IMG/VR virus record: IMGVR_UViG_3300045988_071280
DNA length: 64,000 bases
Reading direction: 5' to 3' (one strand)
Source: a virus
Part shown: positions 24,181 through 63,686 of the stretch, in pieces
How the letters are laid out: each line of letters begins with the position of its first letter
Position numbering within the stretch: the first letter of the stretch is position 1
The notes under the pieces: generated by a model
The model's database searches: none
The model's input: only the letters and a program-made list of their open reading frames with translations
What the model was told of the DNA's origin: nothing
Translations under genes and position numbers: made by a program

Positions 24181-25063
24181 ATGAATAGAAAAGAAAGAAC
24201 TATCTCCGAAAATATGGAGAAATTGATGATAGACCAAATCTCAAGAGAATTATATAATCATAATGTATATAGAACATATGCGAATTATTATTATGTAAGA
24301 GGATTATTTAAATTACATCTTTATTATGAGATGAGATCTAATGAAGAATATAATCATCATCAATGGTTAGTTGATAGATTATATAGGGCTGGAGTTGATT
24401 TCAATTATCCAGAAGTGCCAGCTATTAAATCTAATCATGTTATATTAAAGCCAGAAGATAGTTTCGGTAAAACTGTTGATTTAGAAATTGAGACCACCAT
24501 GTGGATATCTAAAATGATTGAAGCTGCACGAGAAGAGAAAGATTGGCAAACTGAGGGATGGTTGAAGAGGACATTAATGGAAGAGCAGATAGATTTCTGT
24601 CTGAAAGTATGGTAACATACAGGTGAATAGATCAAAATCGGTGGAATCTATTTTAGATAATACCGAGGTAAGTATAAATCTAAAGAATTTATACCACTGT
24701 AACGCGTAGGTATTGAAACTATATTTAAATATAGAATAAAATATACCCAAGAGTGATCTACTCCTATTATTTAAATAGGATGAAAATGTACGCTGAACCG
24801 TCTGATGATTAAATCAGAATATCTTTATTTACATCTTCAATAAAGTAAGGAGGAGACTCCCGGAAGTAAGAGATAAAAAACTCTTATGATAACAAAATTG
24901 GGAAGAAGAAGATGTTAGCCGAACAATCTTAACAATGTCTGAGGAAGATACTGACTGGCAGACTAAGGAAGATACTATTCTATCATATTATAATGGATTG
25001 AATAGAGTAATAGAAGGAGCTAGAAATATTATTGATAATAACTCTTTTCTTAAACAAAGATAA
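24181..25063 (+). CDS. ferritin-like di-iron protein, two exons (24181-24590, 24901-25063)
   Basis: Four-helix-bundle signature: ELYNHNVYRTYANYYY, NEEYNHHQW (ExxH), DLEIET, and after splicing LMEEQ-M-EEEDVSRTIL (the ferritin EEQxEEE helix). Spliced length is 573 nt, in frame. Confidence 0.6.
24591..24900 (+). mobile_element. ORF-less group I intron, family 2 (~310 nt)
   Basis: Begins after a U and ends in G. Shares the blocks gtaacgcgtag, ccaagagtg, atgtacgctgaac and tatgataacaaaattg with the introns at 50277 and 54757. The 5' boundary is uncertain by about 6 nt (alternative at 24596). Confidence 0.7.
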
Positions 25064-25082
25064 TAATTTAATATAATAACTT

Positions 25083-25727
25083 ATGTTAGTTCTAGATAAT
25101 ATTAATTCAGTCTCGGATGTAATTACAAATTCCTCATCGGAATTATTTGTAATAAACGATAAAAATACTACATTAGACCATCTTAAGAATATAATCAATC
25201 CTATATTAGATGGTTATTATGAACCATTTGTATTTAATTTAGATACGTTTAGAAAATGGGTAGAAAGTTCCGAAGAGGATAATTCTACGGATATAGACGC
25301 ATGTTTTCAGACTATATACGACTGGTTCATTGATTTAGAGTATCCTAGTGGTTTAACTTACTATATTAGGGATACTCTTTATAAGTTACGGTTAGAGGAC
25401 TATATTAAATTAGAAAATAGTCTACTTAAAGAATTATACGCGGAATTAATTAAAAAGTATGATACTAATTATCCCTCATATAAAGAAATTGAAGCTTTTC
25501 TTCAAACATATGATGAAGACAAAATAAACAAGATCATAGATTATTTACTAAATACAAATTTCGAATATGACATTCGAAAATTAAATGGAAAAATTATTCT
25601 TCTTTCTGAGGATGAAAATTCTATTTCATGTAGTAGAAAATTTAACCGATCAGAATTTGCAGAAGATTCCGATGTATTTCAGTGGCTTGAGCATAATTTT
25701 AACATTACATATTATCATTTAGGATGA
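25083..25727 (+). CDS. SD(I/V)ITNSSSE-motif protein, paralog A
   Basis: N-terminus LDNINSVSDVITNSSSELFVI is shared with the next two genes. Confidence 0.65.
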   Translation: MLVLDNINSVSDVITNSSSELFVINDKNTTLDHLKNIINPILDGYYEPFVFNLDTFRKWVESSEEDNSTDIDACFQTIYDWFIDLEYPSGLTYYIRDTLYKLRLEDYIKLENSLLKELYAELIKKYDTNYPSYKEIEAFLQTYDEDKINKIIDYLLNTNFEYDIRKLNGKIILLSEDENSISCSRKFNRSEFAEDSDVFQWLEHNFNITYYHLG

Positions 25728-26148
25728 GATTTAAAATACATTCAATATCAGATATTATAACAAACAGCAGTTCAGAAGTATTTCTTGTTTCTAAAGATAG
25801 TAAGATAAAGAATATAAAAGGATTGCAAGAGAAACTGAATTTAGGAGACGTATCTAATTTACTAAAGTTTATACATACTTATAGTTGGGTATAGATAAAG
25901 ACTATAATTATGGAGATTTATGTATAACACTTGATCATATACGTGATATAACTGATGCTTTCAGTAACTACTTCAATGATAGTGACTGGGATGATAATAT
26001 CTCAAAAATAGGTATATTACGTGATGAGATGTACAAAGTATTTGTTGAGAGTTTTAAGGATATAGTAGCTATAGTAATAGATAATGGCTATCATTATGAA
26101 TTTATTGCAGATAATCCAAATTTAAAATATGAAAACTTTCCATATTAA
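25724..26148 (+). CDS. SD(I/V)ITNSSSE-motif protein, paralog B (1-nt frameshift near 25886)
   Basis: MRFKIHSISDIITNSSSEVFLV...HTYSW then the frame changes to GIDKDYNYGD... Observed tgggta where tggggta restores one ORF. Confidence 0.55.
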
Positions 26149-26437
26149 AATTCATTCTATTTCAGATATTATTACTAATAGTAGTTCCGAGACCTTTTGT
26201 TTTATTTATAGTGAAGATATATCTAAAGTATTAAAAGTATTATCTCCTTATTTTGGGAACTATGATGTTTTTGATGAATGTTGTGCACAAATATATGGTC
26301 CTTTTCAAGAAGGTATAGAGGATCCTTATATTGAAATTAGATGTTCCCAAGATTATAGACCTTCGTTACTAGAAGAAGGATTAAGATATGTATTAGATAA
26401 AAATAATATTGATTATACAATATCAAAAGAAGAATAA
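26129..26437 (+). CDS. SD(I/V)ITNSSSE-motif protein, paralog C
   Basis: MKTFHIKIHSISDIITNSSSETFCF. Confidence 0.65.
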   Translation: MKTFHIKIHSISDIITNSSSETFCFIYSEDISKVLKVLSPYFGNYDVFDECCAQIYGPFQEGIEDPYIEIRCSQDYRPSLLEEGLRYVLDKNNIDYTISKEE

Positions 26438-26452
26438 AAAATATCTTTATAT

Positions 26453-26722
26453 ATGGAGTCAATAATAGAGTTTCCAATAATTTTTGTATTTGATTCTAAA
26501 TACTATAATGAAACTACTATAAGTAATATATTAAATAAACTATTAGAGCCTGAGGGAAGATCATACGAAGATTTCTTTAGAAAGATCCAACCGGCTATTG
26601 AAGTAACAACATGCTGCAATCCTAAAGACTTAGCAGTACTAACTTATGAGATACCCTATTGGATGAGACTTTATTTAGAGAATTTACATAATGTAAAAGG
26701 TTATAGTTGTTTAACTTTATAA
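26453..26722 (+). CDS. hypothetical protein
   Basis: ORF track. Confidence 0.55.
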   Translation: MESIIEFPIIFVFDSKYYNETTISNILNKLLEPEGRSYEDFFRKIQPAIEVTTCCNPKDLAVLTYEIPYWMRLYLENLHNVKGYSCLTL

Positions 26723-26730
26723 ATTAAGAG

Positions 26731-28784: not shown

Positions 28785-28811
28785 AGAATATTTATGTAAA
28801 TAAAAATAATT

Positions 28812-30616: not shown

Positions 30617-30671
30617 ATGGAAAATTTTGTCTGATAAAATGCTATAAATATTAATACTTAAAGATGAGAAA

Positions 30672-34883: not shown

Positions 34884-35249
34884 ATGGCAAAAGAATTTAT
34901 TACTGAGGACGATGTTAGTACTAGTTACATAACATCCTCAAAAGTTTATGAACTAATTAATGGTGTTAAGCCAAATTACACTACTGTAGGTTCTAATGGG
35001 TATATTACATTTCCGGCGGAATAACTTTTGAATAGGGAAATGTATCAGTAGCATCTGGATCACGAGAAGTAACTGTTAGTTTACCAAAATCCTTGTCCTA
35101 TGTATTTCAAGGGTATGTTAGTGTACAACATTCTGTTAATGAAGGAGCATATGTAGCATATGTAAGATCTATATCTACTACTACATTAAAATTATATAAA
35201 TATGGGTCGATGCAAATACACTTAGGTGGTTTGTTGTAGGAAAGGTTTA
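34884..35249 (+). pseudogene. disrupted small tail-fibre C-terminal-domain-like gene
   Basis: MAKEFITEDDV...GSNGYITFP / GGITFE*GNVSVASGSREVTVSLPKSLSYVFQGYVSV...LKLYKYG / VDANTLRWFVVGKV*. There are two G-run frameshifts and a TAG where the family has Trp (I-x-W-G). Confidence 0.5.
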
Positions 35250-35719: not shown

Positions 35720-36580
35720 ATGACATTATTAAAAGAAAGACTATTAGAAGCACAAGAAAGAAAAGAGAATGATATTAAAAACTTTACATGGTTATATCCG
35801 AAAGATAGAGATAATGGAAATGTTCAGAATGAGGTTAAATTAGTATCTTGTACTGAGGAACAACTTAAGGGTTTTTATTCCCACTGTAATAAAATGTTAT
35901 ATAATGACTCTAAGGAAAATCCCGGAAGAGTTAATGTGTTAAAAATAATTCAGGACCAAATTACAAAGATTGGAGTCGAGTTAATGCTTCGAGATTTCGA
36001 AGCTAAAAATGAGAATTTCGATAGATTCTCTTTCGCATTATCTATCGATGAGTTCTTGGAAAAGAATAAAGATGTAGATCCCAAAGTTGCTACAATTAAG
36101 AACTTTATTAAGGTAGCTAGAAAATATGAAGATTTAACTTTACATTCTGTATATGAAGGATGTATTGGGAAGTTGGGATTATTTGAGAATCCTCATATCA
36201 CTAAATCTTTTATTCTTAGAATGGGGCTATGGATGAGTAAAATGGCTGGAGATCATAAGAAATTAAAAGAGTGGGCTGAGTTAAATAAATTATCCAGCTT
36301 AAATCCTATGGATAAAGTATATAAATATTTAAGACTTAAAGAACATGATAAATTAAGATCTAATCCAACCGGATTAACTTTATCCCAGATAAAAGGGATG
36401 TTAGAAATTACTAACCATCCTAAAAAGTATAGTGAATTAACTACAGAACAGCTAACAACTCTTAGATATAGGGTATTGTTAGACTTAAGAACTAGTGTAA
36501 GAAGTCATATCTCAAGATGGGAAACTTTAAAGCATCAGATTGAATTAGTTGCTGAATCTAAAGGATTTAAATTGCTTTAA
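35720..36580 (+). CDS. hypothetical protein at the head of the replication module
   Basis: ORF track; translationally coupled to the polymerase (TAATG). Confidence 0.65.
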   Translation: MTLLKERLLEAQERKENDIKNFTWLYPKDRDNGNVQNEVKLVSCTEEQLKGFYSHCNKMLYNDSKENPGRVNVLKIIQDQITKIGVELMLRDFEAKNENFDRFSFALSIDEFLEKNKDVDPKVATIKNFIKVARKYEDLTLHSVYEGCIGKLGLFENPHITKSFILRMGLWMSKMAGDHKKLKEWAELNKLSSLNPMDKVYKYLRLKEHDKLRSNPTGLTLSQIKGMLEITNHPKKYSELTTEQLTTLRYRVLLDLRTSVRSHISRWETLKHQIELVAESKGFKLL

Positions 36581-39500
36581 TGATTTATTACGTAACAAAA
36601 GCTTCTGAACTATATAAATCTAATAGATATACTATTATATCCCCTGAAGAGTCGTTAAAATTACTACATCCATTAAAATATGTAGGAACAGATACTGAAA
36701 CTGAAGGATTAGATTGTCATAGTAAGAAACTTTTATCTATTCAATTTGGATGTAGGGATTTTCAAGTAGTTATAGATTGTACTACTATAAATCCCATTAT
36801 ATATAAAGATTATTTAGAATCCGAAAGAATTTTTCTTTTATGGAATGCTAATTTTGATCTTAAATTCTTCTATAAAATAGGAATCTTTCCAGATAATATC
36901 CGAGACTTGATGTTATCTGAAAAAGCTATATATCTAGGATATCCTTCTGGTATGCATAGTATGGCTTTGAAAGAAGCTGCTTGGAAGTATCTAAAAAAGA
37001 GTCTAGATAAATCTGTTAGAGGAAAAATTATCACTCAAGGTTTAAATGAAGAAACTATCGTATATTCCGCAGAGGATGTTGAGCACTTGGAGGATATAAT
37101 GATTGCTCAACAACCAGAATTAGATAATCAAAATTTAAATGCAGCACTTAAATTAGAAAATGAATATGTTAAAGTAAATGCTTATTTTGAATTTTGTGGA
37201 GCTAAATTAGATATTTCTAAGTGGAAGGAGAAAATGAAGAGGGATCAGGAGAACTTAAATAAAGCTAAAGATATCCTCGATTCATGGGTTGTTGATTGGG
37301 AAAATGATAGAATATCTAGAGAATCTGAGTTAGTATATTTAGATGTTTCCAAATTTAGAGGGGATAATGTTATAGAAGAAGATAGGAAAAAATTAAAATT
37401 TGCAAAGAGAAGAAAAGAGTCCGACATCAGAGAGAAAGATGGCACCTTAATTGCAGAAGCATATGAGAAAGAAGTTAAGAGGAAGTATTCTAGTATAAAT
37501 ACTCAGGGGAATTTATTTTCCGGGTTTGATTTAACCCCTAAGTGTACTATCAACTGGAAAAGCTCTGCACAAGTATTACTTCTATTCGAAGAATTAGGCA
37601 TAAAATGTTCTACAATAGATCCGAAAACCAAAGCTTTCAAAAAGTCTATAAATGAAAAAGTTATAGCTCCACAAAAGAAAAAGTTTCCGATTATTGAGTT
37701 GTATCTTAATTTTAAAGAAGCAGAGAAGTTAGTAGATTCTTTTGGACAGAAATTTTTGGATTTTGTTAATCCAGCTACTGGAAGAATACATTCTACTTTT
37801 CATCAGTTTGGTACGGATACGGGGAGATTGTCGTCTACAAGTCCTAATCTACAGCAATTACCAAAGGATGCACTTACTAGATCATGCTTTGTAGCAGAAA
37901 AAGGGAATAAATGGATTAGTTGTGACTATTCTGGTTAAAATTGTCATATATAAATGTAATTTTTCTTCATTAATAAAATTTAATAAAATATTTGGATTAA
38001 TCCTGACTAATCTGTATCTTTGCATATTAATCAATACATTTTTATTATGTCAAAGAGAATCACTAAAAGTCAAGAAAATGAAATTATTAAATTGTATGTA
38101 GAGGAAAATAAATCCTCTAAAGAAATTTCGGAGATTATAGGAATCTCTAGTAGTTCAGTATTAAGAGTTTTAAAGAGAAATAATATTGAAACTAGATCTA
38201 AAGCTCCAGTTAGGATACCTAATAAGTTTGGTGAAGAAAAAGAAAAAGAAATTATTAGATTATATACAGAAGAAAATAAAAGTACATTAGAGATTGCAAA
38301 TATTTTCGAAACTTATAATACTTCTATTAGAAGAGTTTTAGAAAGAAATAATGTAAAAATTCGTTCTTATAGTGAAGCTCAACGCTATATAGAGTTAGAA
38401 GATATATCTCTAAAAGAGGGTACTAGAGACTTTGATTATTTTTTAGGGTTATTAGCTACAGACGGATGTGTAACAGAAAATAAGATAGTATTAGATTTTA
38501 GTGAAGAAAACAAGGAACTTTTAGACTATTGGAATGATTTTTTAGGGAATAAATGTAACATTACTATTTCCATTCATAAAGTTTTTAAAGTTCCACAATA
38601 TAGAATAGCTTTTAGGAATAAAGAAGTTGTTAAATATTTAGCTACCTTTGGAATAGTCCCTAGAAAATCCTTCAATTTGAAACTAAAATACATTAATTGG
38701 GATGTATTAAGAGGCATTATTGACGGGGATGGATGTATTTCTTCTACTAATTCAGGAAATACAATAAAATTAGGAATCACTTCTGCATGTAAAGAATTCC
38801 TAATTCAAATCCAAGAATTTCTAGAAGGCGAAGGAATTACTTCTTTTATAAATGAAAGTAAAAGAAACGAAAATCCAATATTTGATCTTTTTGTATATAA
38901 AACTAATGATTTAATGATAATACATAAACATTTATATACTGATGCTCATTACTTTCTTAAAAGAAAAGAGAGTAATTTTGGCCCAATATTAAAGAAATTT
39001 AATATATGTAACTCCGTAAATTCAGTTAACGATGAGCATTCCAAGACTGAGCCAAGCCTTATAGAGGAAGGTGCAGAGACTAGAAACGGAGAACCTAAGG
39101 AATAGTATTAGTATATACTATTCTATGGTTAAGGTATAGTCCAGTGTTGACACACTGCAAGAAAGTTTCATTATGGCATCTCTATCCAATGATTCCGCTA
39201 TGTTAGATGAGCTACTTAGGGGATCCGGTGACCTTCATTCGCTAACAGCTCGAATGGTGTTCGAAGAGATACCAGATGATACACCACTTAAAGAAATTAA
39301 GACAAAATACCATGATCTCAGACAAAAAGCTAAAGGTTATGAATTTTGCTTTAATTATGGAGGAAATGCCTCTACTCTAGTAAAAAATTATGGGATAGAT
39401 GAGGATTATGCGAAATCTATTTACGATAACTACATGTCTGGTTTTGATGGTTTATGTAGATATCAGAAAAATCAGAGAGATTTTGTTAATAGATATGGTT

Positions 39501-40261
39501 ATATTATATTAAATAAACTAGGTCTTCGTGCTCATATATATGACTTCTCTGATTGGGAATATTTAAAGCAGAATAACCCAAGAGAGTATAGACAAAGGAA
39601 AGCAGCTTCAGAAAAGCAGGCAATCAACTATAAAATACAGGGCTCAGGTGCTGCAATGTGGAAATTGGCAATGGTAAAGATATTTAATTATATTAAAAAG
39701 AATAATTATCTTAATATAGTTAAATTATGTGTGCCAGTACACGATAATTCTCAACTTTGTCGTGTTAAAACTTGGTTAATTGCTGGGAATCTTTAAAATA
39801 CTATATACTACAAAAATATTGAAAAATATTTTGAATGTTTTAATAAATATAGTATATCTATGTTAAATATAATATAGAGATAAGACAATCAGCAGCTTTT
39901 TCCTAAGTAATACAATTATAAGGAAAGAAGTTCAGAGACTATCTAGAAATAGAGTAAGCTCCAAGAGGAGTTGAAACGCCAAGGTAAGACAGTATTAGAT
40001 TTTGAATCTCGTTAACTATCTAATATGCTAAATAGAATTGTCTTATAAGATATAGTCCGATACTGCAAGAGATTGCAGAAATATCGCGGAATCGGCGATA
40101 TTGTTAACATAAAGGAAGTCAACTTAGAAGCACCAGAGAACATAGCAGATGAGATAGCCTCTGTAGTAGTAACTGCAATGAAGTCTGCTGGAGTATATTT
40201 TTGTCCAAATGCTCCCTTAAATGTTACTTGTGATATAGGGGATTTTTGGATTCATGAATAA
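36580..40261 (+). CDS. family A DNA polymerase with 3'-5' exonuclease domain, three exons (36580-37935, 39158-39745, 40115-40261)
   Basis: Exo motifs GTDTETEGLD, LWNANFDLKF, YSAEDVEHL. Splicing restores motif A DYSG|QESFIMASLSND, motif B RQKAKGYEFCFNYGG and IQGSGAAMWK, and motif C PVHD|EVNLEAP. Spliced length is 2091 nt, in frame. Confidence 0.85.
38015..38022 (+). promoter_or_regulatory. -7 box TATCTTTG inside the intron, upstream of the HEG
   Basis: Exact TAnnTTTG, 24 nt upstream of the ATG at 38047. Confidence 0.4.
38047..39105 (+). CDS. intron-encoded double-motif LAGLIDADG homing endonuclease with two N-terminal HTH repeats
   Basis: FDYFLGLLATDGCV and VLRGIIDGDGCI. There is a duplicated N-terminal module (EIIKLYVEENKSSKEISEIIG / EIIRLYTEENKSTLEIANIF). 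The track start 38020 is a TTG; the ATG at 38047 is more likely. Confidence 0.85.
   Translation: MSKRITKSQENEIIKLYVEENKSSKEISEIIGISSSSVLRVLKRNNIETRSKAPVRIPNKFGEEKEKEIIRLYTEENKSTLEIANIFETYNTSIRRVLERNNVKIRSYSEAQRYIELEDISLKEGTRDFDYFLGLLATDGCVTENKIVLDFSEENKELLDYWNDFLGNKCNITISIHKVFKVPQYRIAFRNKEVVKYLATFGIVPRKSFNLKLKYINWDVLRGIIDGDGCISSTNSGNTIKLGITSACKEFLIQIQEFLEGEGITSFINESKRNENPIFDLFVYKTNDLMIIHKHLYTDAHYFLKRKESNFGPILKKFNICNSVNSVNDEHSKTEPSLIEEGAETRNGEPKE
39746..40114 (+). mobile_element. ORF-less group I intron (family 1, td-like), 369 nt
   Basis: Begins after ..cacgat| and ends ..aacataaag|. Contains agacaatcagcagc, cagagactatctagaaatagagta and gatatagtccg. Inserted in PolA motif C between D and E. 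Confidence 0.8.
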
Positions 40262-49068: not shown

Positions 49069-49513
49069 ATATAAAAACGAATATGAATCGAGCATAAATA
49101 GTGCTATTTTACGATGTTTAAATACTTGTACTTCTACTAATGATAAAGAGGGATTTTTAAGTCTTATATATTATCTCAAAGAAAAGTATGAAGTCGAAAT
49201 GTATGATATTGAATACTATATTCTGTGTGCATTTCAAAATGATTCAATAGATAGAGTTCTAGGAAATGTATATGAGAGTATATTTAATGAAATAATTAAG
49301 AGTTTATTAGATGATGATGCTTGTGATATATGCAATTTCATAAGTTATCATATTTCAAATATTAATTCCGAGTTTGGATTATCTATAGAATATTTTACAT
49401 ACGAAAATTTTTTAGAGGGAAGAAAGTTCTTTTTTAGTTTAGAAGAACTTCTTCCAGATATTACTATACATGAAACTATAGATGGAGAACTGCAAGATAG
49501 AACTAATATCTAA
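49052..49513 (+). CDS. hypothetical protein
   Basis: ORF track. Confidence 0.55.
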   Translation: MKNIIEYKNEYESSINSAILRCLNTCTSTNDKEGFLSLIYYLKEKYEVEMYDIEYYILCAFQNDSIDRVLGNVYESIFNEIIKSLLDDDACDICNFISYHISNINSEFGLSIEYFTYENFLEGRKFFFSLEELLPDITIHETIDGELQDRTNI

Positions 49514-51863
49514 AGAAGTATTATCTAAATTTAAGATAAAAATATTATCAATAAATAGTTTAGATATAACTGATGAAGTATATTTTTCTGATAAATATTC
49601 TAATTATATATCTAATTCTAAATTAAAACTGATAAATCCTAATGAAGGAGGATCATTTAAAACATATTTAGAAGGATTAAAATCTAAATTTACCGGATCT
49701 TTAGATTTAGGATCGGCGGTTCATGAGTTAATTCTACAAAATGAATCGTTTGAATTAAATTCTTATACCAAATTATCTGGTAAAATTGGGAAAGTTATAG
49801 AGGTTGTATTTAAATATAGAAATAAGGGATATTCCATATTAAATGCAATTCGAAAAGCTTCCGAAGAAGTTTCTTATTACATATCTCAATTAACTGATAC
49901 AAGAATATCTAATATAATCTCATCTGGATTTAAATATTATCTTTATTTATATAAAAATAAAGATGTTAAATATGATAAAGAACAAATAATCTTGGATGAG
50001 AAATCTAGGGAAACTTGTATAAAATGTGTAGATTCTATTAGAAGAAATTCTGATGCAATGAATCTCCTTTCCCCAGATGAATTTTCATTAGATCAGTATT
50101 TAAATAAGAATGAGGATACTATTATAATAGAAATTTTAGTATCATTTCCTAATAGTTTAAATAATCCAAATGCACCCATTGTTGAGATTCCTTTAAAACT
50201 AAAAGCTAAGATAGATAATTGGAATTTAAATATAAATGAAGGTATTCTTAATTTAAATGATTTAAAGACTACTGGTAAGTAAATTTTTTTTATTGTATTT
50301 TATTTGTTTTATTTCATTAAATGTATTTAATTTGTATATTATTAAATAATACAATAAAAATACATTTATGAATAATTTAAATCAAGCTATTAGTGATTAT
50401 GAACATTTATTTATAGGAATTTGTGAATTAAGTAAAAAATATAAAATTCCTAATAAAGAAATTAGAAAAGCGTTAGAAGATAAAGGATATTATTTAGGAA
50501 AAGGAGTATCTCCAAAAAGTGTTGTGCATATTAAACTTGCAGTAGAGGAATATAAAAATATTCTTAATGCTGGTGAAGAACCTAATATTCATCAACTGGC
50601 ATTAAAGTATGATATTTCCGATACGTCTATAAAAGACAATTTAATTAGATTAAATCTTCCTGTTGTAAGATACCCTAAAAAAATCCATTTTGATGAACAT
50701 GTCTTTGATGTTATAGATACTGAAGAAAAAGCATATTGGCTAGGATTTTTAACTGCTGATGGGTATATTTGTAGTAGAGATAATACATTTGGAATTGGTC
50801 TAGCTAGTATAGATAAGCATCATGTAGAAAAATATGCCACATTTCTTAAATGTCCTCAACATGTTAAATTTAAGAATAACGAACATGCTGGAATATATAG
50901 ATGTGATTTAGGAAACGCTCATGTAAAGCAAGTATTACAAAAATATGGATTTACTGCTTCTAAATCTTTTGACTGTACCTTTTTAAAAGACCAGTTTTTT
51001 GCAAATTCCGATTTAATAAGACATTATATTAGAGGATATTTTGATGGAGATGGCTGTGTCAGTTATAAAAAAAAGTATAGAAAAACAATTAATGCCACTA
51101 TTTATATTCCGATAGTTTCTATAGTTGGAACAGAAGCTTTTTTACAAGAATTAAGAAATAAATCAAGTTTAATTTGTCTTTTTCAGTCACAACAAAATTT
51201 ATGGAATTTATATGGATCTGGAAAAAAGGCAAAAGATTTTCTTTATTACATTTATAATAACGCTACTATTTATCTAGATAGAAAATACAATATTTATAAA
51301 AATTATATTGCCCCACACTTAGAGAAATCGAGTGTTCCGCAGTGGCCAATATCGGTAGATACTGAAATGTAAATACCGAGATAAATTCAGAGATCACGAA
51401 AGGCTCTGAATCATCGTAACGCGTAGAAGGTGAATAAATATAATCCTTCCAAGAGTGGCTGCCACCTTAAAGGGTGAAAATGTACGCTGAACTATATCGA
51501 ATAACAAGATATAGAAATAAAGGATAAAAAGCCTTTATGATAACAAAATTGAAACCATGGTATTTATTCCCAGGATCTATAGTAAATGAAACTGGAGAAT
51601 TTGTTGAAGGGTCCTTCCAGCATTATCATTATTATCGCCAATTAGGTATGTATTACTGGATGTTATTATCTTATTTAAATTCTGAGAATTATGTAGTATC
51701 TAAATCATATTTAAATATTATATCAGTGCAAACTATTCCTAATTATTCTACTGTAGTATTTAGAATCCCGAATAAATGGTTTATTAAAGGATTAAAAGAA
51801 TTTAAAACATTATTATCTTACGCAGCTTATGCTGAATATAATAAAGAAAAAATATTATCATGA
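49482..51863 (+). CDS. PD-(D/E)XK-type nuclease, two exons (49482-50276, 51552-51863)
   Basis: GSAVHELIL, then ..KIDNWNL.. and LNLNDLKTTG|KPWYLF... (a D-x-K catalytic motif). Spliced length is 1107 nt, in frame. Confidence 0.5.
50277..51551 (+). mobile_element. group I intron, family 2, carrying a LAGLIDADG homing endonuclease
   Basis: Begins after ..actggt| and ends ..gataacaaaattg|aaacca. The 3' 180 nt share ataccgag, cgtaacgcgtagaa, ccaagagtgg and aatgtacgctgaac with the introns at 24591 and 54757. Confidence 0.75.
50368..51372 (+). CDS. intron-encoded LAGLIDADG homing endonuclease
   Basis: IDTEEKAYWLGFLTADGYI and IRGYFDGDGCVSY. Close paralog of 54855-55910. Confidence 0.85.
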   Translation: MNNLNQAISDYEHLFIGICELSKKYKIPNKEIRKALEDKGYYLGKGVSPKSVVHIKLAVEEYKNILNAGEEPNIHQLALKYDISDTSIKDNLIRLNLPVVRYPKKIHFDEHVFDVIDTEEKAYWLGFLTADGYICSRDNTFGIGLASIDKHHVEKYATFLKCPQHVKFKNNEHAGIYRCDLGNAHVKQVLQKYGFTASKSFDCTFLKDQFFANSDLIRHYIRGYFDGDGCVSYKKKYRKTINATIYIPIVSIVGTEAFLQELRNKSSLICLFQSQQNLWNLYGSGKKAKDFLYYIYNNATIYLDRKYNIYKNYIAPHLEKSSVPQWPISVDTEM

Positions 51864-53152: not shown

Positions 53153-56100
53153 ATGAAACTAGAATTATCTAAATCGATCTTAGAATCTATCTCAAGTAGA
53201 GTAAATAATGATATTTTTACATTTGATGATGTAGAAAGTGAATATAAATTGGATAATATTCAAGAAAAGTTATATAATAGATTATATAAAAACTATCAGG
53301 ATTTAACTCCACCACAATTTGATTTAGATACGTTTAGATTTACATATAAAATACTTTGTCAAAACTCTGGAGTAAAAAAGACTCCTCAGAAACAATTAAA
53401 TAAAGTTAAGGATAGAAAAATTGTATATGATGCTACTACTGATGAATCTTTCGAAAGTAGAATTGTTGGTTCATCTGTAAGAGATGAAGAAGGTAAAGTA
53501 ACACATTATGAATTTAGAATCCTTATTAGAGATAAAGAATCTTTTGAAGGTACTCTCACGTTATCTGAAATGCAGGATATTTATGTTGGATATTCTAATA
53601 GAGGATATAATTTATCAGCTAGGAAATTGTCTGAGAAATTCCCACAATATGATTTGATTCAATTAAAGAAGATTTTAAGAGCGTTTCAGATTACTAAAGA
53701 TTGTTACCCATTTGCTCCACATATTGCAGAAAGTAAGAGTAAAGAGGAATTAGAAAGGATGTTATTAGATTTAAAATTACATTCTGCTTCTAAGAATGCT
53801 GATAGAGATGAGGTACAAGATAAGAATAAATATATCTTAGAATTAACTAAGGAACTTAATAAGTATAGAGATAAAGAAACATTTGTTAAGGATTTACTTA
53901 GAATTCCTGTTAAATATAATACTCCTATAACGCCTTTATATTCCGATGCTAATGAATATACTAATACGTTAGTTATATTCTTGTCTGATATGCATATCGG
54001 AGCTTATAATCCTAAATATGGATTTATACAATTGGAAGATTATAATAAAGAAGAAATTAGTAGGAGATTAGATAAAGTATATAATTTTATTATTAATAAA
54101 TTATTTGATAATTTAATTATCTGTAATTTAGGAGATAGTGTAGATTCTTATAAAGGTGAAACTGTTAGAGGTCATGAATTACCTACTACTATTACTCCAA
54201 AAGAACAATCTAAGATGTATTTAGATATTATGTTAGGGTTCTTTAATAAATTACTTGATTATGTAGAAAATTCTCATATTAAATACATCTGTATTGGAGA
54301 TTCAAATCATTGATTGTATTTAAATACAATTTGTGCTAATAATAAGAAATTATTATTTGAAACTAGGTTAACTGCTGGGACGCCTGAGATGGTAATCAGC
54401 AACCAAGCTACAGATTTAAATTCTGTAGAAGGCTCATCGACTATTCCTGAAATGGAAGTAGAATCAAGCGATTCGAAATGCCTAGCCCTTAGCATTATAT
54501 CTAATATAGATATAGATATAGATGAAGGTGAAGAGATAGTCAGTTCTCATATTAATAAGGAAGTATGAGGAGGTTTTATTAACCCATATAAGAGTAGCGA
54601 ACTTATATGAACATAAAGGATGGTGACTGGGGATGGCTAAATAACGTTGTTCTTTCTGCTAAACTTAAAGAACTGAATATAGAATCCCACATTTCTGATC
54701 TTCCAATCGATAAATTTGATATCGGAAACAATTCTATATTATTCATGCATGGTGATATATTTTTCATATTTTTAATATAATTATTTAGTTTCCATGGAAA
54801 TAATTTATATATTTGTTAAATAATAATATATTTAATAAATAATAGAATTATAACATGGAAAAATTTTTAAATTTATTTTTGAGGAGTGAATTAAGTTTAC
54901 TCGATTTTTGTAAGCAATATAATCTATCTAGAGTTGAATTTGAAGGTTATATTAATGACAAAGGATATTATTGGAAGAATGGAAGGTCTGGCATAAAAGT
55001 TAACCTATTTAAACTGGCAATAGATGATTATGTAAATTCTTTAGAGAGTGTAGGAGCTTCTGCTAAAAGATTTGGAATTAATTCTCAATCTCTTAGTAAA
55101 GATTTAAAAGAATTAGATCTTTATGATGAATCCAGAAAAGGTAAGTCAATAAAAAAATATAATGAACGTATTTTTGATACTATTGACACAGAGGAGAAAG
55201 CATATTGGTTAGGATTTATCTTTGCTGATGGATATATATATTCATCCCCAATCGAAGAGAAAAAATCTAGAACAGATTGGAACTTTGAATTATGTGCTTC
55301 TGGTACTGATAAAGAACACATGGAAAAATTTGCCAAGTTTATAGGATACACTAAAGAATTAAAGATTACTAAAGCTGATAATAAAGGAAATACTAGATGT
55401 AGGGTATGTCTATCTAGTCAACATTTATGGGAAACACTTAATAGTTATGGTTGTACTCCTAGAAAATCTTTAACCTTAAAGTTCCCAAGTCTAAACATAT
55501 TTAAGGACGAGAGTTTAGTATGGGACTTTATAAGAGGTTATATAGATGGAGATGGGTGTATTTCATATGCAACTAAAGATCATTCTAAAATGCTCCTTTC
55601 CTTATTAGGAACAGAAGATTTTTTAAATTCTATACAAGATGTATTTTCTACTAAGTACACTTTGGAATATAATCATAATGATAAGAATTCTAAAACTAGA
55701 GTACTAGAAATAGCTTGTAGACCAGGGCTTAACATTTTACATAAATTATATTCACACTCAAAAATATATTTAAAAAGAAAATATGAAAGATATTTAGAAT
55801 ATTGCCGTCTATATGAGGAATCATATAGAGAATTAGAAACCAATAACGGGGAAGGCTGTGATGTCAATCCCGTGATAAGTACAGAAAGTAAAGAGTCTGT
55901 GCCATCGTAACGCGTAGAACTTGAACCTCGAAAGAGAATAAAATAGTTCCAAGAGTGGTTTCTACCCCAACACTTTTATAAGTAGTGGGTAAAAAGGTAC
56001 GCTGGACTATAGCAAAAAGAAGCTATAGAAGTTAGGATAAAAAGCCTAACGATAACAAAATCGAAAGATAGCGATTCCCAGTTTAAAGGAATGCCTCTTA

Positions 56101-56360
56101 CATTGAATGATAGAACAATAAATTGGGTAAATGATTATATTTATGATTCTGGATTAAAATTTAAAGACAATCTCTATGTAGTAAAAGGAGATTTACATCA
56201 ATATGCTATAACAGAATCTAGAAGATTTCAATATATTTCTGTTCCAAGTTTATATGGATCTTCTAATTATATAGCTGCTAATTTTGGGAAGACTAAATGG
56301 GGAGTAGGTTTTATGGAAGTATTTAATGACCATGTAACAACTGGAGTAATTAAAGAATGA
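53153..56360 (+). CDS. metallophosphoesterase (SbcD/Mre11-like motif order) with a long N-terminal extension, three exons (53153-54310, 54619-54756, 56064-56360)
   Basis: LSDMHIG (motif I), CNLGDSVD (II), GDSNH|DGDWG (III, restored by splicing), FMHGD|KDS.., KGDLHQY. Spliced length is 1593 nt, in frame. Confidence 0.65.
54311..54618 (+). mobile_element. ORF-less group I intron (family 1, td-like), 308 nt
   Basis: Begins after ..aatcat| and ends ..gaacataaag|gatggt. Contains aatcagcaaccaagc, catcgactattcctgaaatggaagta, ttcgaaatgcctagc and gagatagtcag. Confidence 0.8.
54808..54815 (+). promoter_or_regulatory. -7 box TATATTTG inside the intron, upstream of the HEG
   Basis: Exact TAnnTTTG, 39 nt upstream of the ATG at 54855. 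Confidence 0.4.
54855..55910 (+). CDS. intron-encoded LAGLIDADG homing endonuclease
   Basis: IDTEEKAYWLGFIFADGYI and IRGYIDGDGCISY. Confidence 0.85.
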   Translation: MEKFLNLFLRSELSLLDFCKQYNLSRVEFEGYINDKGYYWKNGRSGIKVNLFKLAIDDYVNSLESVGASAKRFGINSQSLSKDLKELDLYDESRKGKSIKKYNERIFDTIDTEEKAYWLGFIFADGYIYSSPIEEKKSRTDWNFELCASGTDKEHMEKFAKFIGYTKELKITKADNKGNTRCRVCLSSQHLWETLNSYGCTPRKSLTLKFPSLNIFKDESLVWDFIRGYIDGDGCISYATKDHSKMLLSLLGTEDFLNSIQDVFSTKYTLEYNHNDKNSKTRVLEIACRPGLNILHKLYSHSKIYLKRKYERYLEYCRLYEESYRELETNNGEGCDVNPVISTESKESVPS

Positions 56361-57588: not shown

Positions 57589-57591
57589 TAC

Positions 57592-58353
57592 ATGGAAATA
57601 ACTTTAGAACAATTATTAAAAGGAAAAGCAACGCAAATAGGAAAGAAAGAATTCTATTCTACTAAAGACTACATAGATCCCTTTCTTCAATCAATGAGTA
57701 AATTTACAGATGAATTTATATGTAAAGTAAAAGAGCCAAAACAGATTAGTATTGGAGAAGAAAAAGATATAATGTATAATAGAGTTTATATTCAAGCAGT
57801 TTTACCTAAAAGCTATTGGGAGTATGAAGATCATCAGCAAGTAATATCTTTAATTTATGGATTAGATTGTAAAGTCCCAGTAGTAAAAATTTTTAGGGGA
57901 GGGATTAATATGGCGTGTTTAAATCTTTGTGTGTTTAATGCTACATATTTAAATACACAAGTATTAGAGCCACAAAAGATGTATGATGTTTCTCCTATTA
58001 AAAACCTAATGAATTTAACAGATGATTTAGGAGTTAAGATTAAAAAATTAAAGAATACATTTATATCTAGAGATAAAGTAGATATGACTAATACTCTAGG
58101 TAAATGGGTAGATTTTTGTATTAAATCTGAGTATAAAAGTGATTTTGGAAAAGCTAAATTATCCCCAACTACTGCAATATCTGCATATAAAAATTTAGTT
58201 TTAAATCCCGACTCAGAGTATTATATTCCGGAAGATGAAGAAGTTTCGTTATTTACTGCATATAATGCATTTACTGAATTATTAAGGGATGATAAAGATG
58301 TTGTCAATCCTTTTGAAAAGAATTTACTTTTAAATAATTTATTTGAAATTTAA
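57592..58353 (+). CDS. hypothetical protein
   Basis: ORF track. Confidence 0.65.
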   Translation: MEITLEQLLKGKATQIGKKEFYSTKDYIDPFLQSMSKFTDEFICKVKEPKQISIGEEKDIMYNRVYIQAVLPKSYWEYEDHQQVISLIYGLDCKVPVVKIFRGGINMACLNLCVFNATYLNTQVLEPQKMYDVSPIKNLMNLTDDLGVKIKKLKNTFISRDKVDMTNTLGKWVDFCIKSEYKSDFGKAKLSPTTAISAYKNLVLNPDSEYYIPEDEEVSLFTAYNAFTELLRDDKDVVNPFEKNLLLNNLFEI

Positions 58354-58354
58354 T

Positions 58355-61300
58355 ATGTACAATGATCAATCTAATGCTTTAGGAGAATTTATTTTTCAAT
58401 CTAAATATGCTAGATATAATTCTAATCTGAAAAGGAAAGAGACCTTTGAGGAATCTGTAGATAGAATATTACAGATGCATTTAAAACATCTTAAAGATAA
58501 ATATCCAGAAGTATTAAATAATGCAGAATTTAATAATGATTTATTAGAAGCCTTTGAGGAGTATAAAAATAAAAATGTTTATGGATCTCAGAGAGCTTTG
58601 CAATTCGGAGGTGATCCTATTTTAAGAAAGAATGAAAAAATCTTCAATTGTTCATATACTTATATAGATGATCTTGAGAGATTTAAACAAATTGAGTATT
58701 TACTATTATGTGGTTGTGGAGTGGGATGTTCTGTTGAATATAAACATGTGAATACACTTCCTGAGATGGCAGAAGTACTTAATAGTTCAGTTGAAGAGTA
58801 TATAATCGAGGATAGTATTGAAGGATGGTCAAATTCTATAGATAGACTAATTCGATATTATTTTAATTCGGATATAGCATATCCTAGATTTGATTATTCT
58901 AAAATCAGACCTAATGGAAGTTTGATATCAGGAGGATTTTTAGCTCCTGGCCCTGATGGTTTAAGAAATGCTCTAAATAAAATAGACTCTTTACTTAATA
59001 TTATTCATAAAACTACTAAAAGATTATCTCCACTTAACTGTGCTGATATATTATCACACTGTGCTGATTCTGTTCTCAGTGGTGGCGTCCGTTAGACATT
59101 GGCGGCTTATAATAGTAATATTATAATGATAATTCTGTGAATTCAGGGAATATCTTATATAGATAAGACAATCCTGATCCAAGCACTTAAATATAGTGAA
59201 GGAGCAACGACTATCCCAGACGTGGGAGTAGGGTAATATCATCTACCCGAAGCGCAGAACATCCTATTAAAGGATGATGATATAGTCTAAACTATATAGT
59301 GATATATAGAGTCTTTGCGATGTCTACGTGGAGACGATGATATAATAACTAATAAAGGATTAGTTAAATTAAAAAATATTAAAAATGGAGATTTAGTATT
59401 AACACATGATGGATCTTTTCAAAAAGTTATTAACAAGGAAAATAATGGGATTAGAAAAGTAGATAGAATAACTACGAATTTAAATATAAATTATTCTACA
59501 AATAATCATAGGTGGTTAGTATTAAATAATCTTTCTGGAGAATTTAAGGAAGTGTATGCATCAGATTTAAAAGAGGGGGATGTTTTATTATTAAATAACA
59601 GAAGTGTATCAGGAGAATATCAGGATTTTCCTAAATATACTGATTTAAAATTACCTAAATTAGATGAAGATTTAGCTTGGTTTATTGGATATTTCTTAGG
59701 GAATGGTAATGTATCTACTAGAACTAGATCTGATACTGGGTTTGAAGATAATAAATTTAGAGTTTGTATCCCAACTAATTACCCTACTATAGTTAATAAG
59801 GTAAAGAGTATCTTTGAAAAAATTGTTGGAACATATAGTATACATAAAAAGAAAAGTGCTATAGAACTTACATCAAGTAAAAAGTGTTTTGTTGAATATT
59901 TTCTAAATATCAAACAACCTAATACTCCAATCCAAATTCCGGATTTTATAAAACAGAATACATCATCTATACAATTAGCATTCTTAGCTGGAGTATTAGA
60001 TTCAGATGGAAGTGTTAGAAATGATAATAAGAATGGAAAAGGATATGGACAAATTACTTTAAATAGTTCTAAATATTCTATATTTATTACTCAACTTCAA
60101 GCTTTATACAATTTAAATGGAATTATTACTAAGACTCAAACAAAAATTAGAAAAGGAAAATCTAATGAGTATATTCTTAAAACAGTTTCATTTAAATATA
60201 GAAAAGAATGTGTAGAGAAATTAAGTCTATATTCCGAAAAGCTTAAGGAAGATTATATTTTAGAAGAAATTTCTAAAGAGAAAGACGGAATTTATTTTCC
60301 TAAATATTTAGCAATAAGAGGAGAAGGTAATAAGATTTGGAATAGTTGTAAAAGATGTTCTTTAAATAAAGTATTAGAATATTATCCAGATTTAAATTAC
60401 ATTCCTGCTGTAATTACTAATATAGAAAAGGACGTTGAAGAAGTAGAAGTATTTGATATAGAAGTAGAAAATAATCATAACTTTTATGTAAATGGAGTAC
60501 TAACACATAATTCTGCTTTAGCTATATTATTCTCTCCTAATGATGAGGAGATGTATAATTCTAAAGTAGGTAATTGGTTTTATGATAATCCTCAACGTGG
60601 AAGATATAATGCTTCTGTTGCTTTGGAGAGAAGTGATGATAATAAAGAAGTATTTAATAAAATCTTTGAATCTACTAAAGAATATGGAGAACCTGGGTTT
60701 TTCTTTAGGTCTGATTCTGGTATAGGATGTAATCCATAAAATGATGTGGCTATATATAGTGATATATATAGAAAACTAGGCTAATTCGGGGAATCTCTTA
60801 TTTAATAAGACAATCCCGAGCTAAGTGATTAAATATTTAATCTAAATGTGTAACGACTATCCTGAAAAGGAGTAGAACCAAGTGGTTCGAAATGCCTAGC
60901 GTCTTATATTAAATATATAAGATGATGATATAGTCTAATCTCTATAGTGATATAGAGGATCTTTAATTAGATCAGATAAGAAGTAACGAGCTTATCTTAA
61001 TATAATGGTTTTGAAATAGGTTTTAAACCAGTATTAGAAATACAGAAACCTGATGGAGTATCTAAACAAACTGGGATACAGTTTTGTAATTTGATCTCCA
61101 TCTCAGGTAAAGAATCCACAACAGAAGAGAAATTCTATAAACAATGTAAAGCAGCTGCTACTATTGGAACAATTCAAGCTACATATAATTCCTTCCCTTT
61201 CTTAGGTGAAGTAACAGAGCAATTAGCTAAGAATGATCCATTAATTGGAGTATCTATTAGCGGGATTATGATGAATCCTGATATATTATTAAATAAAAAT

Positions 61301-63686
61301 ATTCTACGTAAAGGAGCTGAGATTATTAAAGAGCAAAATAATAAAATAGCTAACTTACTAGGAATTAATCCTGCATCTAGGACTACTTGTATTAAGCCTA
61401 AAAATATGATTAAATAGTAGGTTTATAGTAAGACATTTTTTAATTTTGTAGTATTATAAAAAATACTTAAAATTAAAAAATATGAAATCACAATTAATAA
61501 TCAAATTAGAAAATTTAAAAAATTTAAAAACTCTTGTTGAAGAAGAACTATATTCTGCAAAGGATATATGTAACTTTCTAGAATTACCAGAAGAAAAAAA
61601 TACTATTAGAAATATTAATAGTTACTTAAGACGATATAAAATAAAGTCTCCTTATCCAAAAATAACAGATCGTAATTCTAGAATTATAGAAAAATATAAA
61701 TCAAAAGTACCTGAATGGTGGAATCATCCAAAATTAAAAACTGTAATTGAATTTAAACTAAAAAATAATTTAGTTATAAATTATGCAGATAAGGATAAAA
61801 AAATTGCTAGATATGTAATCTCTGTAAAATATCATCCAAGAGCTTCATCTGCAAATCAAGTAAAGGCTCATATTATATTATGGGAATTACATAATAAACA
61901 ATTATTTCCTGATAATTATGTAATGATTCCAAAAGACGGAAATTTTTTAAATTTAAATATTGATAATTTTGATGTAATGTCAAACGAAGAATATAGATCT
62001 ATCACAGCTACTAGTAAAAAAAATCATTTTTATACTACTGGTAGTAAATCTGGAGTATGTTATAAAGGAGGATGGAAAACTATCTCTAAAAAATTTCTTC
62101 AGACAAATACATCATGCGAAATATGTGGATGTTCAAATAAATATAAGTTAAATGTACATCATATAATTAGCTACTATTTATTTGATAAATCTAAGGATGC
62201 ACATTTTTTAGAAAACTTAATTTGTTTATGTGATTCATGTCATCAAAATCTACATTTAGGAAAATTAAACTTATTGGGCATCTTATCTGAAAAGATAAGA
62301 TTAAAACTTCTTAAATTGCTGGAAACACTTAAAGAAAAATTTAAAAATGATGATAAATTATTATTAGTAAATTTTTCAATTAAGTCAATCAGCAGCCAAG
62401 CTGATTTGAAATCAGAAGGTTCAACGACTATCTCGAAAGAGAGTACATCACAAGCTAATGGTGATGGAAATAGGAAGCATCTTAACTCAAATGAGAAAGA
62501 TGATGATATAGTCTAATCTATATGGTGACATATAGCAGTTCATAGGAGAACGTATATAAGAGTTGCGTCTTATATAGAATATATAATGGATGGAAATATA
62601 AGTACCTTAACTGGAAACACTCCTGGATGTCATGGTCAACATGCGAAAAGATATATCCGGAGAGTTCAGGTTAATAAAGAAGAAGAAGCAGGTAAAGTAT
62701 ACGCTAAATATAATCCTAAAGCAGTAGTAGAATCTGTTTGGTCTAATAATCATACTGATAATTGTATTATGTTCGCAATAGAATCGGATGATAACGTTAA
62801 AACCAAATCGGAATTATTAGGAATTAGACAATTAGAAGTAGTTAAATTACTATATAATAACTGGATTCTTCCAGGAATGGTAGATCCTACTAATCCTGTA
62901 TGTAATAATGTATCTAATACTGTTATAGTTCCAAATCAAGATTGGCATAGAGTAAAAGATTGGGTATGGAATAATAAAAACTTTATTGCTGGAGTATCAT
63001 TTATTCCTTCAACTGGAGACATTACTTTTACACAACCTCCATACTCAGAAGTATTTATTCCAGAAGAATTGGTAGAAATGTATGGAGACGGAGTAATATT
63101 TGCCTCAGGTTTAATCGTAGACGCAGAAAAAACTTTCGGAAATTTATGGAGAGCTTGCGATACATTTAATTATAAAGGGGAGAAGTTATATTCTACTGTT
63201 GAAGATGCTAAAGAATTTATTAAAGAACTTAATGTAACAGAAGATCCCTCTTATTTAAATAAACCTCATTCTGAATGGGTAAAAGCTAATTCAATTCAAT
63301 ATAATAATTGGGTTAAAGTATTATCCACATTGGGATATACAGAAGAATTTATAGATGAAATTTTAGATTCTGACATAGAAATTCCAATTGCAGAAATTCA
63401 GAAGTATTTAGATAAAACAGCATTTACTAATGTAAAAAATCTAAATGCTAAGAGAGATATAATGCGGAGAATGAAAAAATTCGGAGATACATATTTTGGA
63501 GAAGATTATAACACTATGATTGAAGCTCTTAAATATGTACAATTATATCACGATTGGTGTGATATAACTAGAAACTATACTCCTATCGACTGGACTATAG
63601 TTAAATGGAAAAAAGTACTGATCGATGCAGATACAACAGGAGCTCAGGCCTGTTCTGGAGGACAATGTGATATAACTAAAATATAA
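58355..63686 (+). CDS. nrdJ: class II (B12-type, NrdJ-like) ribonucleotide reductase: four exons (58355-59092, 59318-60737, 61008-61399, 62589-63686) plus an intein in exon 2
   Basis: N-terminus FQSKYARYNSNLKRKETFEESVDR. Splicing plus intein removal restores SGGVR|R|SALAILF, GIGCNP|CFEIGF (NPC thiyl-radical loop) and TTCIKP|DGNISTLTG. The extein total is 2457 nt, in frame. The class assignment rests on motif memory only. Confidence 0.8.
59093..59317 (+). mobile_element. ORF-less group I intron (family 1, td-like), 225 nt
   Basis: Begins after ..gtccgt| and ends ..gtctttg|cga. Contains agacaatcctgatccaagc, caacgactatcccagacgtgggagtagggt, gatgatatagtctaa and the hairpin ctatatagtgatatatag. Confidence 0.8.
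59321..60511 (+). mobile_element. intein (397 aa) with LAGLIDADG endonuclease domain
   Basis: Starts CLRGDDDIITNKG, block B TNNH, DOD motifs LAWFIGYFLGNGNV and LAFLAGVLDSDGSV, ends NFYVNGVLTHN followed by extein Ser. It sits inside the RNR motif GGVRR|SA. Confidence 0.9.
60738..61007 (+). mobile_element. ORF-less group I intron (family 1, td-like), 270 nt
   Basis: Splits the Cys codon of NPC (t|gt). Ends ..aatataatg|. Contains agacaatcccgagctaag, taacgactatcctgaaaaggagta, ttcgaaatgcctagc and gatgatatagtctaa. Confidence 0.8.
61441..61448 (+). promoter_or_regulatory. -7 box TAATTTTG inside the intron, upstream of the HEG
   Basis: Exact TAnnTTTG, 33 nt upstream of the ATG at 61482. Confidence 0.4.
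61482..62516 (+). CDS. intron-encoded HNH homing endonuclease
   Basis: CEICGCSNKYKLNVHHIISY...NLICLCDSCHQNLH is a classic HNH with a zinc-binding Cys pair. The last ~40 codons overlap the ribozyme core blocks. Confidence 0.85.
   Translation: MKSQLIIKLENLKNLKTLVEEELYSAKDICNFLELPEEKNTIRNINSYLRRYKIKSPYPKITDRNSRIIEKYKSKVPEWWNHPKLKTVIEFKLKNNLVINYADKDKKIARYVISVKYHPRASSANQVKAHIILWELHNKQLFPDNYVMIPKDGNFLNLNIDNFDVMSNEEYRSITATSKKNHFYTTGSKSGVCYKGGWKTISKKFLQTNTSCEICGCSNKYKLNVHHIISYYLFDKSKDAHFLENLICLCDSCHQNLHLGKLNLLGILSEKIRLKLLKLLETLKEKFKNDDKLLLVNFSIKSISSQADLKSEGSTTISKESTSQANGDGNRKHLNSNEKDDDIV

Follow-up and report, generated by a model that had tools for sequence, protein, structure and literature searches.

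Group I introns and inteins have been described at an "unprecedented density" in crAss-like phages, notably in the Zeta group with genomes of 145-192 kb (Yutin et al. 2021, Nat Commun; PMC7886860), and a 2025 study of Zeta phages found that near-identical genomes differ chiefly in homing endonucleases. The Jug jumbo phages of Bacteroides, also gut phages, carry a mean of 18.5 group I introns per 360-402 kb genome, and metatranscriptome reads confirm splicing for 37 of 76 predicted introns (PMC12880540). Here we analyse a stretch of 64,000 nucleotides (nt) of viral DNA, IMG/VR record IMGVR_UViG_3300045988_071280, which we call the window. We conclude, with a probability of roughly 0.9, that its region 24.2-63.7 kb represents a crAss-like phage module for replication and nucleotide metabolism, with ten group I introns spread over six genes and, in the reductase gene, an intein as well. 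An earlier note on this DNA had proposed ten such introns and one intein, and their cores, P1 helices, empty alleles and intein domains bear this out at the proposed places. The same note held ten introns to be exceptional, a view overtaken by the intron-laden crAss-like phages published in 2021.

Results

Six interrupted genes in one module

In the map of open reading frames (ORFs), six + strand genes of the region 24-64 kb stop early and then resume in frame. They encode a ferritin-like protein, DNA polymerase A (PolA), a DnaB-like helicase, a nuclease-like protein, a metallophosphoesterase (MPE)/exonuclease and a class II ribonucleotide reductase (RNR); the earlier note counted seven interrupted genes, although its own list names these six. 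We placed the exon junctions by reading the DNA and spliced the genes in silico (Table 1). As the note had stated, all ten intervening sequences follow a U (T in the DNA) and end in G, and their excision restores a single reading frame in every case. The lengths had been given as 225-1307 nt: the lower end stands, and the upper end becomes 1310 nt with the second MPE intron. The interrupted motifs are restored at all sites, with one correction to the proposed junctions: the intron in the reductase NPC motif lies inside the cysteine codon (T/GT, the slash here and below marking the junction) and not between the codons of NP and C. Five of the ten introns present an in-frame stop codon at most two codons past the 5' splice site, and six contain no ORF. 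The density amounts to ten introns per 39.5 kb. Motif scans and an inspection of five inter-ORF gaps (at 31.4, 33.6, 34.7, 40.3 and 12.1 kb) revealed no further introns, and a comparison for indels with 69 related loci from IMG/VR contigs, which were also the source of the empty sites described below, found no other insertions within window genes from 24 to 64 kb.

The spliced products align continuously with uninterrupted homologues, a check that the earlier note had called for. Spliced PolA gives a single Pfam DNA_pol_A match (residues 323-693 against profile positions 29-379 of 381, 231 bits), compared with 89 and 93 bits for the unspliced fragments. DnaB_C is detected by Pfam solely after splicing (residues 21-316), and phrog_19 matches too; in the ferritin-like protein the Pfam match extends from profile position 126 to 136 on splicing. 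Freed of introns and intein, the reductase aligns with the adenosylcobalamin-dependent ribonucleoside triphosphate reductase (RTPR) of L. leichmannii (PDB 1L1L, E 3e-13) through GGVRR/SAL and KP/DG, and the spliced protein matches TIGR02505 (E 1.2e-45). In the spliced MPE, phrog_22398 (residues 230-518) and phrog_284 "exonuclease" span both junctions. The label of PD-(D/E)XK nuclease given to the fourth gene found no support: searches of Pfam, PDB and NCBIfam returned no match for its product, and the sole match is a weak, N-terminal one to phrog_412 "exonuclease VIII".

Every predicted junction also occurs uninterrupted in IMG/VR contigs that are ~98% identical in the interrupted genes, and these empty alleles are seamless. 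They therefore fix the element boundaries independently of the splicing model and rule out natural gene splits.

Ribozyme cores

We searched for ribozyme cores with the Rfam group I intron model RF00028, whose gathering score is 50 bits. This covariance-model check, also suggested in the earlier note, succeeded in part. Five of the ten introns reach the gathering score: RNR-1 (99 bits), RNR-2 (92.3 bits), the core of RNR-3 (80.1 bits), DnaB (84.2 bits, E 3.9e-21, in a 4-kb slice) and MPE-1 (62.5 bits, E 5.2e-15, in a short slice). Two more are significant below it. PolA-2 scores 35.6 bits (E 1.4e-6), and a variant at the same site in the related locus L013 scores 51.3 bits. PolA-1 is matched through a 264-nt ORF-less homologue at its site (locus L015; 45.5 bits, E 1.2e-10), the core of which agrees nearly base for base with the 3' part of the PolA-1 intron of the window. 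These seven introns align with the RF00028 consensus structure, PolA-1 again through the ORF-less homologue, and the remaining three are unmatched. Searches of the whole window or of 41 kb recovered the three reductase introns only, and short slices added DnaB, MPE-1 and PolA-2; DnaB and MPE-1 were missed in large stretches because of the speed filters of the search and not because they are absent.

The cores fall into three structural types. PolA-2, DnaB, MPE-1, RNR-1, RNR-2 and RNR-3 possess P7.1 and P7.2 helices and resemble the "IA2" introns of the phages Twort and T4, a likeness drawn from a comparison of features. The PolA-1 intron has neither P7.1 nor P7.2 and forms a separate type. The ferritin, nuclease and MPE-2 introns, which we call class B, have a single P7.1 hairpin and a differing P7 sequence.

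A second core family shared with other phages

The three class B introns have a second core sequence in common. Its relatives found by blastn are 68-76% identical over 140-230 nt and have the same helices, with compensatory changes. One separates the two parts of the split tape-measure gene of Staphylococcus phage 6ec and follows an HNH ORF; another follows an "intron-encoded endonuclease" in the crAss-like phage cr6_1, and a third lies in a split helicase gene of the crAss-like phage cr118_1. Further blastn relatives occur in the megaphage Lak-A1 of Prevotella and in phages of Clostridium, Clostridioides and Mammaliicoccus. These sequences immediately precede the second half of a split gene, and often an endonuclease ORF (HNH or "intron-encoded") comes before them. 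The host genes differ (tape measure, helicase, ATPase), and the fetched records carry no intron annotation.

We derived a class B fold by hand and tested it on 12 aligned sequences drawn from eight other phages as well as the window. It comprises P3, P4, P5, P6, P6a, P7, P7.1, P8, P9 and P9.1, with a P3/P7 pseudoknot. In the alignment, 96.1% of the cells are paired and 37 of the 52 pairs show changes on both sides; none of 500 shuffles was as good, and partners slid out of register were 33-45% paired. P7 contains a bulged nucleotide, and its first pair is A-U, C-G or G-C depending on the phage. Because of the covariation, the pseudoknot and the bulged P7 with three different Watson-Crick first pairs, we treat class B as putative group I introns of IA-like architecture. 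A fold computed by RNAalifold from four class B sequences was partly wrong and gave way to the hand-derived one.

P1 helices and splice sites

Each of the ten introns can form a P1 helix in which the last exon U stands opposite a G, with 3-7 exon base pairs (bp) and 0-5 further bp on the intron side. The guide sequence lies 8-23 nt into the intron in seven cases. The other three, nuclease, MPE-2 and RNR-3, have it 877-1051 nt beyond the 5' splice site, and their endonuclease ORFs fill the P1 loop and extend into the core. P1 pairs CAGAU with GUCUG in the ferritin intron, including the U.G pair, and has 7 bp in PolA-2; the internal guide sequence of the nuclease intron occupies 51308..51312, and that of RNR-3, GGGC, 62274..62279. 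A P1 for RNR-3 near its 5' end, with a U-A pair, was dropped: the guide sequence sits 877 nt downstream, matching the ORF-less relatives. In RNR-2, P1 shows a compensatory change between alleles (CCAU with GUGG versus CCGU with GCGG).

In the PolA-1 intron, the guide region UGUCA (37941..37947) is also complementary to the loop UGACA of the last hairpin (39146..39151). Both partners change together in the ORF-less relatives, to UGCCA and UGGCA; this points to a conserved interaction of the guide sequence with the hairpin at the 3' end.

The 5' splice site of MPE-2 is better placed after GGT at 54753. There, a P1 of 10 bp joins AUGGU/GAUAU to AUAUUGCCGU at 55799..55808, and the guide sequence adjoins P2, the same place as in the other class B introns. 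A site after GAT, pairing to GUUUCCAUG, was rejected on three grounds: that segment is absent from the ORF-less variant, the conserved P2-adjacent guide sequence favours the GGT site with its 10-bp P1, and the empty alleles are shorter by one codon. The intron-less alleles read CATGGA/AAAGAT (protein HG/KD).

Endonuclease ORFs and the intein

Pfam places the ORFs of four introns among homing endonucleases, three LAGLIDADG and one HNH, in agreement with the earlier note. The ORFs of the nuclease and MPE-2 introns are paralogues (32% identity, E 2e-45). A further LAGLIDADG domain belongs to the reductase intein, which begins one codon past intron RNR-1. Its termini are canonical: an N-terminal Cys (CLRGDD...) and a C-terminal NGVLTHN followed by Ser. 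Its removal gives GGVRR/SALAIL, aligned with VRRSAELAL of RTPR. The termini, the domains, the in-frame insertion in a conserved motif and the exact absence from relatives support an intein, which would be excised by protein splicing.

Table 1. Interrupted genes, introns, endonuclease ORFs and intein of the window, with the state of each intron site in related IMG/VR loci (a slash marks the splice junction)
Feature	Position	Strand	Content and matches	Junction	Loci with empty site	Other occupants in relatives
Ferritin-like gene	24181..25063	+	exons 24181..24590, 24901..25063			
Intron 1, ferritin	24591..24900	+	310 nt, no ORF, class B	GCAGAT/GGAAGA	4	320, 725-746, 1167-1171 nt
PolA gene	36580..40261	+	exons 36580..37935, 39158..39745, 40115..40261			
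Intron 2, PolA-1	37936..39157	+	1222 nt, LAGLIDADG ORF; splits DYSG/QE	TCTGGT/CAAGAA	10-17	264 nt, ORF-less
ORF in intron 2	38020..39105	+	LAGLIDADG_3 (Pfam, E 6.9e-15) and helix-turn-helix repeats; runs into ribozyme core			
Intron 3, PolA-2	39746..40114	+	369 nt, no ORF; splits VHD/E	CACGAT/GAAGTC	4-6	356, 925 nt
DnaB-like helicase gene	43520..44960	+	exons 43520..43666, 43980..44960			
Intron 4, DnaB	43667..43979	+	313 nt, no ORF; splits Walker A, ADSG/AGKS	TCGGGT/GCAGGT	10	1194 nt, ORF-bearing
Nuclease-like gene, family unconfirmed	49482..51863	+	exons 49482..50276, 51552..51863			
Intron 5, nuclease	50277..51551	+	1275 nt, LAGLIDADG ORF, class B	ACTGGT/AAACCA	16 (...ACTGGT/AAA...)	
ORF in intron 5	50368..51372	+	LAGLIDADG_3 (Pfam, E 1.4e-9); between 5' splice site and guide sequence; ends in P5			
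MPE/exonuclease gene	53153..56360	+	exons 53153..54310, 54619..54753, 56064..56360			
Intron 6, MPE-1	54311..54618	+	308 nt, no ORF; splits GDSNH/D	AATCAT/GATGGT	12	
Intron 7, MPE-2	54754..56063	+	1310 nt, LAGLIDADG ORF, class B	CATGGT/AAAGAT	4	309 nt (ORF-less, L045), 571 nt
ORF in intron 7	54855..55910	+	LAGLIDADG_1 and LAGLIDADG_3 (Pfam)			
Class II (adenosylcobalamin, RTPR-type) RNR gene	58343..63686	+	exons 58343..59092, 59318..60737 (intein inside), 61008..61399, 62589..63686			
Intron 8, RNR-1	59093..59317	+	225 nt, no ORF; splits GGVR/R	GTCCGT/CGATGT	18, jointly with intein (GVR-R-SAL)	
Putative intein	59321..60511	+	397 amino acids, LAGLIDADG endonuclease domain; Intein_splicing (Pfam, E 2.1e-14), LAGLIDADG_3, Hint_2		18, jointly with RNR-1	
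Intron 9, RNR-2	60738..61007	+	270 nt, no ORF; within NPC cysteine codon (T/GT)	AATCCAT/GTTTTG	12	
Intron 10, RNR-3	61400..62588	+	1189 nt, HNH ORF; splits KP/DG	AAGCCT/GATGGA	8	268-269 nt, ORF-less
ORF in intron 10	61482..62516	+	HNH (Pfam, E 3e-6)			

Variation among close relatives

Several sites hold ORF-less versions in some genomes and endonuclease-bearing versions in others (Table 1), and thus one ribozyme occurs bare or with varying cargo. Intron RNR-1 and the adjoining intein behave alike: among 21 related loci both are present in three and both absent from 18, and neither occurs alone. Genomes in which the upstream exon shows only 82.5% identity share an RNR-1 intron with 97.8% identity, and one genome with exons 98-99.5% identical has neither RNR-1 nor the intein. 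This pattern fits horizontal movement, possibly as one unit; shared descent is also possible.

Seven more sites in the PolA, DnaB and reductase genes, all empty in the window, are occupied in relatives by introns that have group I core motifs. These introns occur in L013 (12116-14133), L010, L011, L014, L015, L028 and others, at window-equivalent positions ~36707, 37823-37847, 39630, 44724, 58826 and 58948. The PolA gene of L013 contains four RF00028 matches at the gathering score in addition to an intron at the PolA-1 site. In L039, L044 and L032, a 1241-nt insertion in reductase exon 1 (window-equivalent ~58718) holds a continuous ORF of 417 amino acids that ends in ...IHN and is followed by Cys, and is probably a second intein site. 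The occupant at or near the RNR-2 site of L028 is 957 nt long, with ends unlike those of the 270-nt intron, and may be a different element or occupy a slightly shifted site. At the ferritin site, the P7.1 loop of the intron in L053, L052, L058 and L050 contains a cargo of ~420 nt with higher G+C, whose longest ORF has 56 amino acids (e.g. L053 ~3540-3960); folding of this cargo was no better than that of shuffles (z = -0.58). In other relatives the same loop has an ORF of 132 amino acids with a T5orf172-like N-terminal motif, recognised by eye, or one of 257-263 amino acids.

Affiliation and surroundings

The best protein matches of PolA (52% identity) and primase (35-50%) are all to crAss-like phages. 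For PolA, the nearest crAss-like phage in GenBank is only 52% identical; the PolA gene of cr111_1 has no interruption. A megablast search of window positions 36-48 kb against GenBank phages gave no match, and the affiliation comes from the protein-level searches instead. Close relatives are numerous in IMG/VR, as contigs of 83-167 kb. The phage may belong to the Zeta group, with related contigs that reach 167 kb against genomes of 145-192 kb in that group. The window itself contains no TerL, MCP or other structural genes, on which, with portal, a phylogenetic placement would be built.

Several features outside the interrupted genes deserve mention. A tRNA cluster spans 10123..14474, where ARAGORN reads Met, Cys, Met and Gln tRNAs, none of the four with a suppressor anticodon, and Rfam adds a fifth tRNA at 11033..11102. 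Near this cluster, ~770 nt at 12058..12828 hold no listed ORF and no Rfam match, and contain several GNRA-capped hairpins at about 12400..12830. Four neighbouring small ORFs at 25083..26437, three of them with the common N-terminal motif S[IV]SD[IV]ITNSSSE, look like a tandem paralogue family. At ~34790 a run of eight Gs is followed by short ORFs (34900..35130) resembling one frame-shifted gene, which could reflect a sequencing error or a slippery homopolymer. A stand-alone ORF at 5350..5901 on the - strand has MUG113 and T5orf172 domains, which we take to be related to GIY-YIG nucleases, and may encode a free-standing homing endonuclease. The ORFs 1597..2283 and 7323..8351 look endonuclease-like by eye and had no Pfam match.

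Discussion

The reading of the six genes as carriers of ten group I introns and an intein is supported by the RF00028 matches, the covariation within class B, the U.G pair of P1, the terminal G, the endonuclease ORFs, the intein termini and domains, and the empty alleles. From this anatomy, the folds, the homology and the presence/absence polymorphism we infer how the elements would work. In the pre-mRNA, the internal guide sequence would pair with the end of the upstream exon, setting the last exon U opposite G. A guanosine bound in P7 would attack the 5' splice site, the terminal G of the intron would then occupy the same P7 pocket, and the exons would be joined in frame. The intein would excise itself from the reductase after translation. 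Homing would be driven by the endonucleases of the introns (three LAGLIDADG, one HNH) and the LAGLIDADG domain of the intein, which would cut the empty alleles of co-infecting relatives, with repair copying the element into the cut allele. The six ORF-less introns may persist by inheritance, by co-conversion with their neighbours or with the help of enzymes supplied in trans.

A number of observations weigh against this reading. P1 is short, with 3-4 exon bp, in PolA-1, DnaB, nuclease and MPE-1, and the three introns with guide sequences 877-1051 nt away would require long-range folding. All four endonuclease ORFs read into the ribozyme core and overlap its helices; in RNR-3, the last ~250 nt of the HNH ORF cover the core from the 3' strand of P1 through P8. 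An alternative 5' site of MPE-2, 3 nt downstream, also allows P1-like pairing, and its junction would be CATGGTGAT/AAAGAT. The ferritin and MPE-2 introns have no RF00028 match even at E<=10, and the nuclease intron had none in the 41-kb search; the assignment of class B as putative group I introns rests on the fold derived here. Finally, RNA splicing at the ten sites is a prediction from the DNA. The short P1 helices, the guide sequences ~1 kb from their splice sites and the overlap of ORFs with cores would be consistent with some of the ten being decayed, splicing-dead relics, their host genes being pseudogenes or working as fragments. We consider this unlikely, given that the affected genes all have core replication functions and are interrupted in catalytic motifs, that the core helices are intact and covarying, that many independent assemblies contain these introns in little-altered form, and that the exon frames are kept at every site.

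Split genes of the mobE type, as in the reductase genes of T4-like phages, exist in phages, and on this model the interruptions would be free-standing homing-endonuclease insertions or natural gene splits without RNA splicing. The endonuclease ORFs in four interruptions agree with such a model, but six interruptions have no ORF, ribozyme cores are present in all ten, and the empty alleles are seamless. Moreover, the downstream fragments (AGKS..., DGDWG... and one beginning in a Cys codon minus its first base) lack start codons, and we regard simple gene splitting as very improbable. Equally hard to credit is that the three class B elements are structured RNAs of another kind. A 411-nt slice without RF00028 matches even at E<=10 is what such RNAs would give, whereas the helix order P3-P4-P5-P6-P7-P7.1-P3'-P8-P7' with a P3/P7 pseudoknot and bulged P7, the U.G pair of the 5' splice site and the final G point to group I introns. 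So do the position of the homologues in other phages, within split genes and right behind endonuclease ORFs, and the exact empty sites.

With ten group I introns and an intein as the favoured account, a further-reaching reading can be put forward tentatively: that class B is a widespread phage family of group I introns unseen by the Rfam model and that, in addition, the intein endonuclease mobilises the ORF-less RNR-1 intron together with the intein as a single unit, four genomes having both elements, 18 neither and none just one. Both parts together are possible, if on balance doubtful. If the first holds, surveys that count phage introns by covariance models or endonuclease domains would yield systematic underestimates, the more so as six of the ten introns here are ORF-less.

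The basic phenomenon is already published, and the value of the window lies in a resolved example, with ten introns and an intein bounded within one 40-kb module. Near-identical genomes differ at every site in the presence, absence or cargo of the intron, which provides a data set on the spread of introns and homing endonucleases. Gene calling without splicing badly mis-annotates such genomes.

Among described systems, the window introns have much in common with the IA2 introns of the Staphylococcus phage Twort and of T4: common core elements, P7.1 and P7.2 helices, the AAGAUAUAGUC motif, similar 3' ends, insertion in conserved polymerase and reductase motifs, and stop codons soon after the 5' splice site. 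Twort and T4 have far fewer introns per genome than the window phage. The reductase genes of the Bacillus prophage SPbeta reportedly carry group I introns together with an intein, as Lazarevic and colleagues are said to have described in 1998; that reductase is of class Ib, whereas the window reductase is of class II, RTPR-type, with three introns and an intein one codon after an intron. The Jug phages have about one intron per 20 kb, compared with one per 4 kb in the module of the window. Like the window phage, the Zeta and Delta crAss-like phages belong to the human gut and carry group I introns and inteins in core genes (PMC7886860). Yutin et al. found introns through endonuclease protein domains, a survey that the six ORF-less introns of the window would escape. 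The intron density of the window is thus at the top of the reported range of the same phenomenon, to which our analysis adds an exact map, six ORF-less introns among ten, a family missed by Rfam and site-by-site polymorphism among close relatives.

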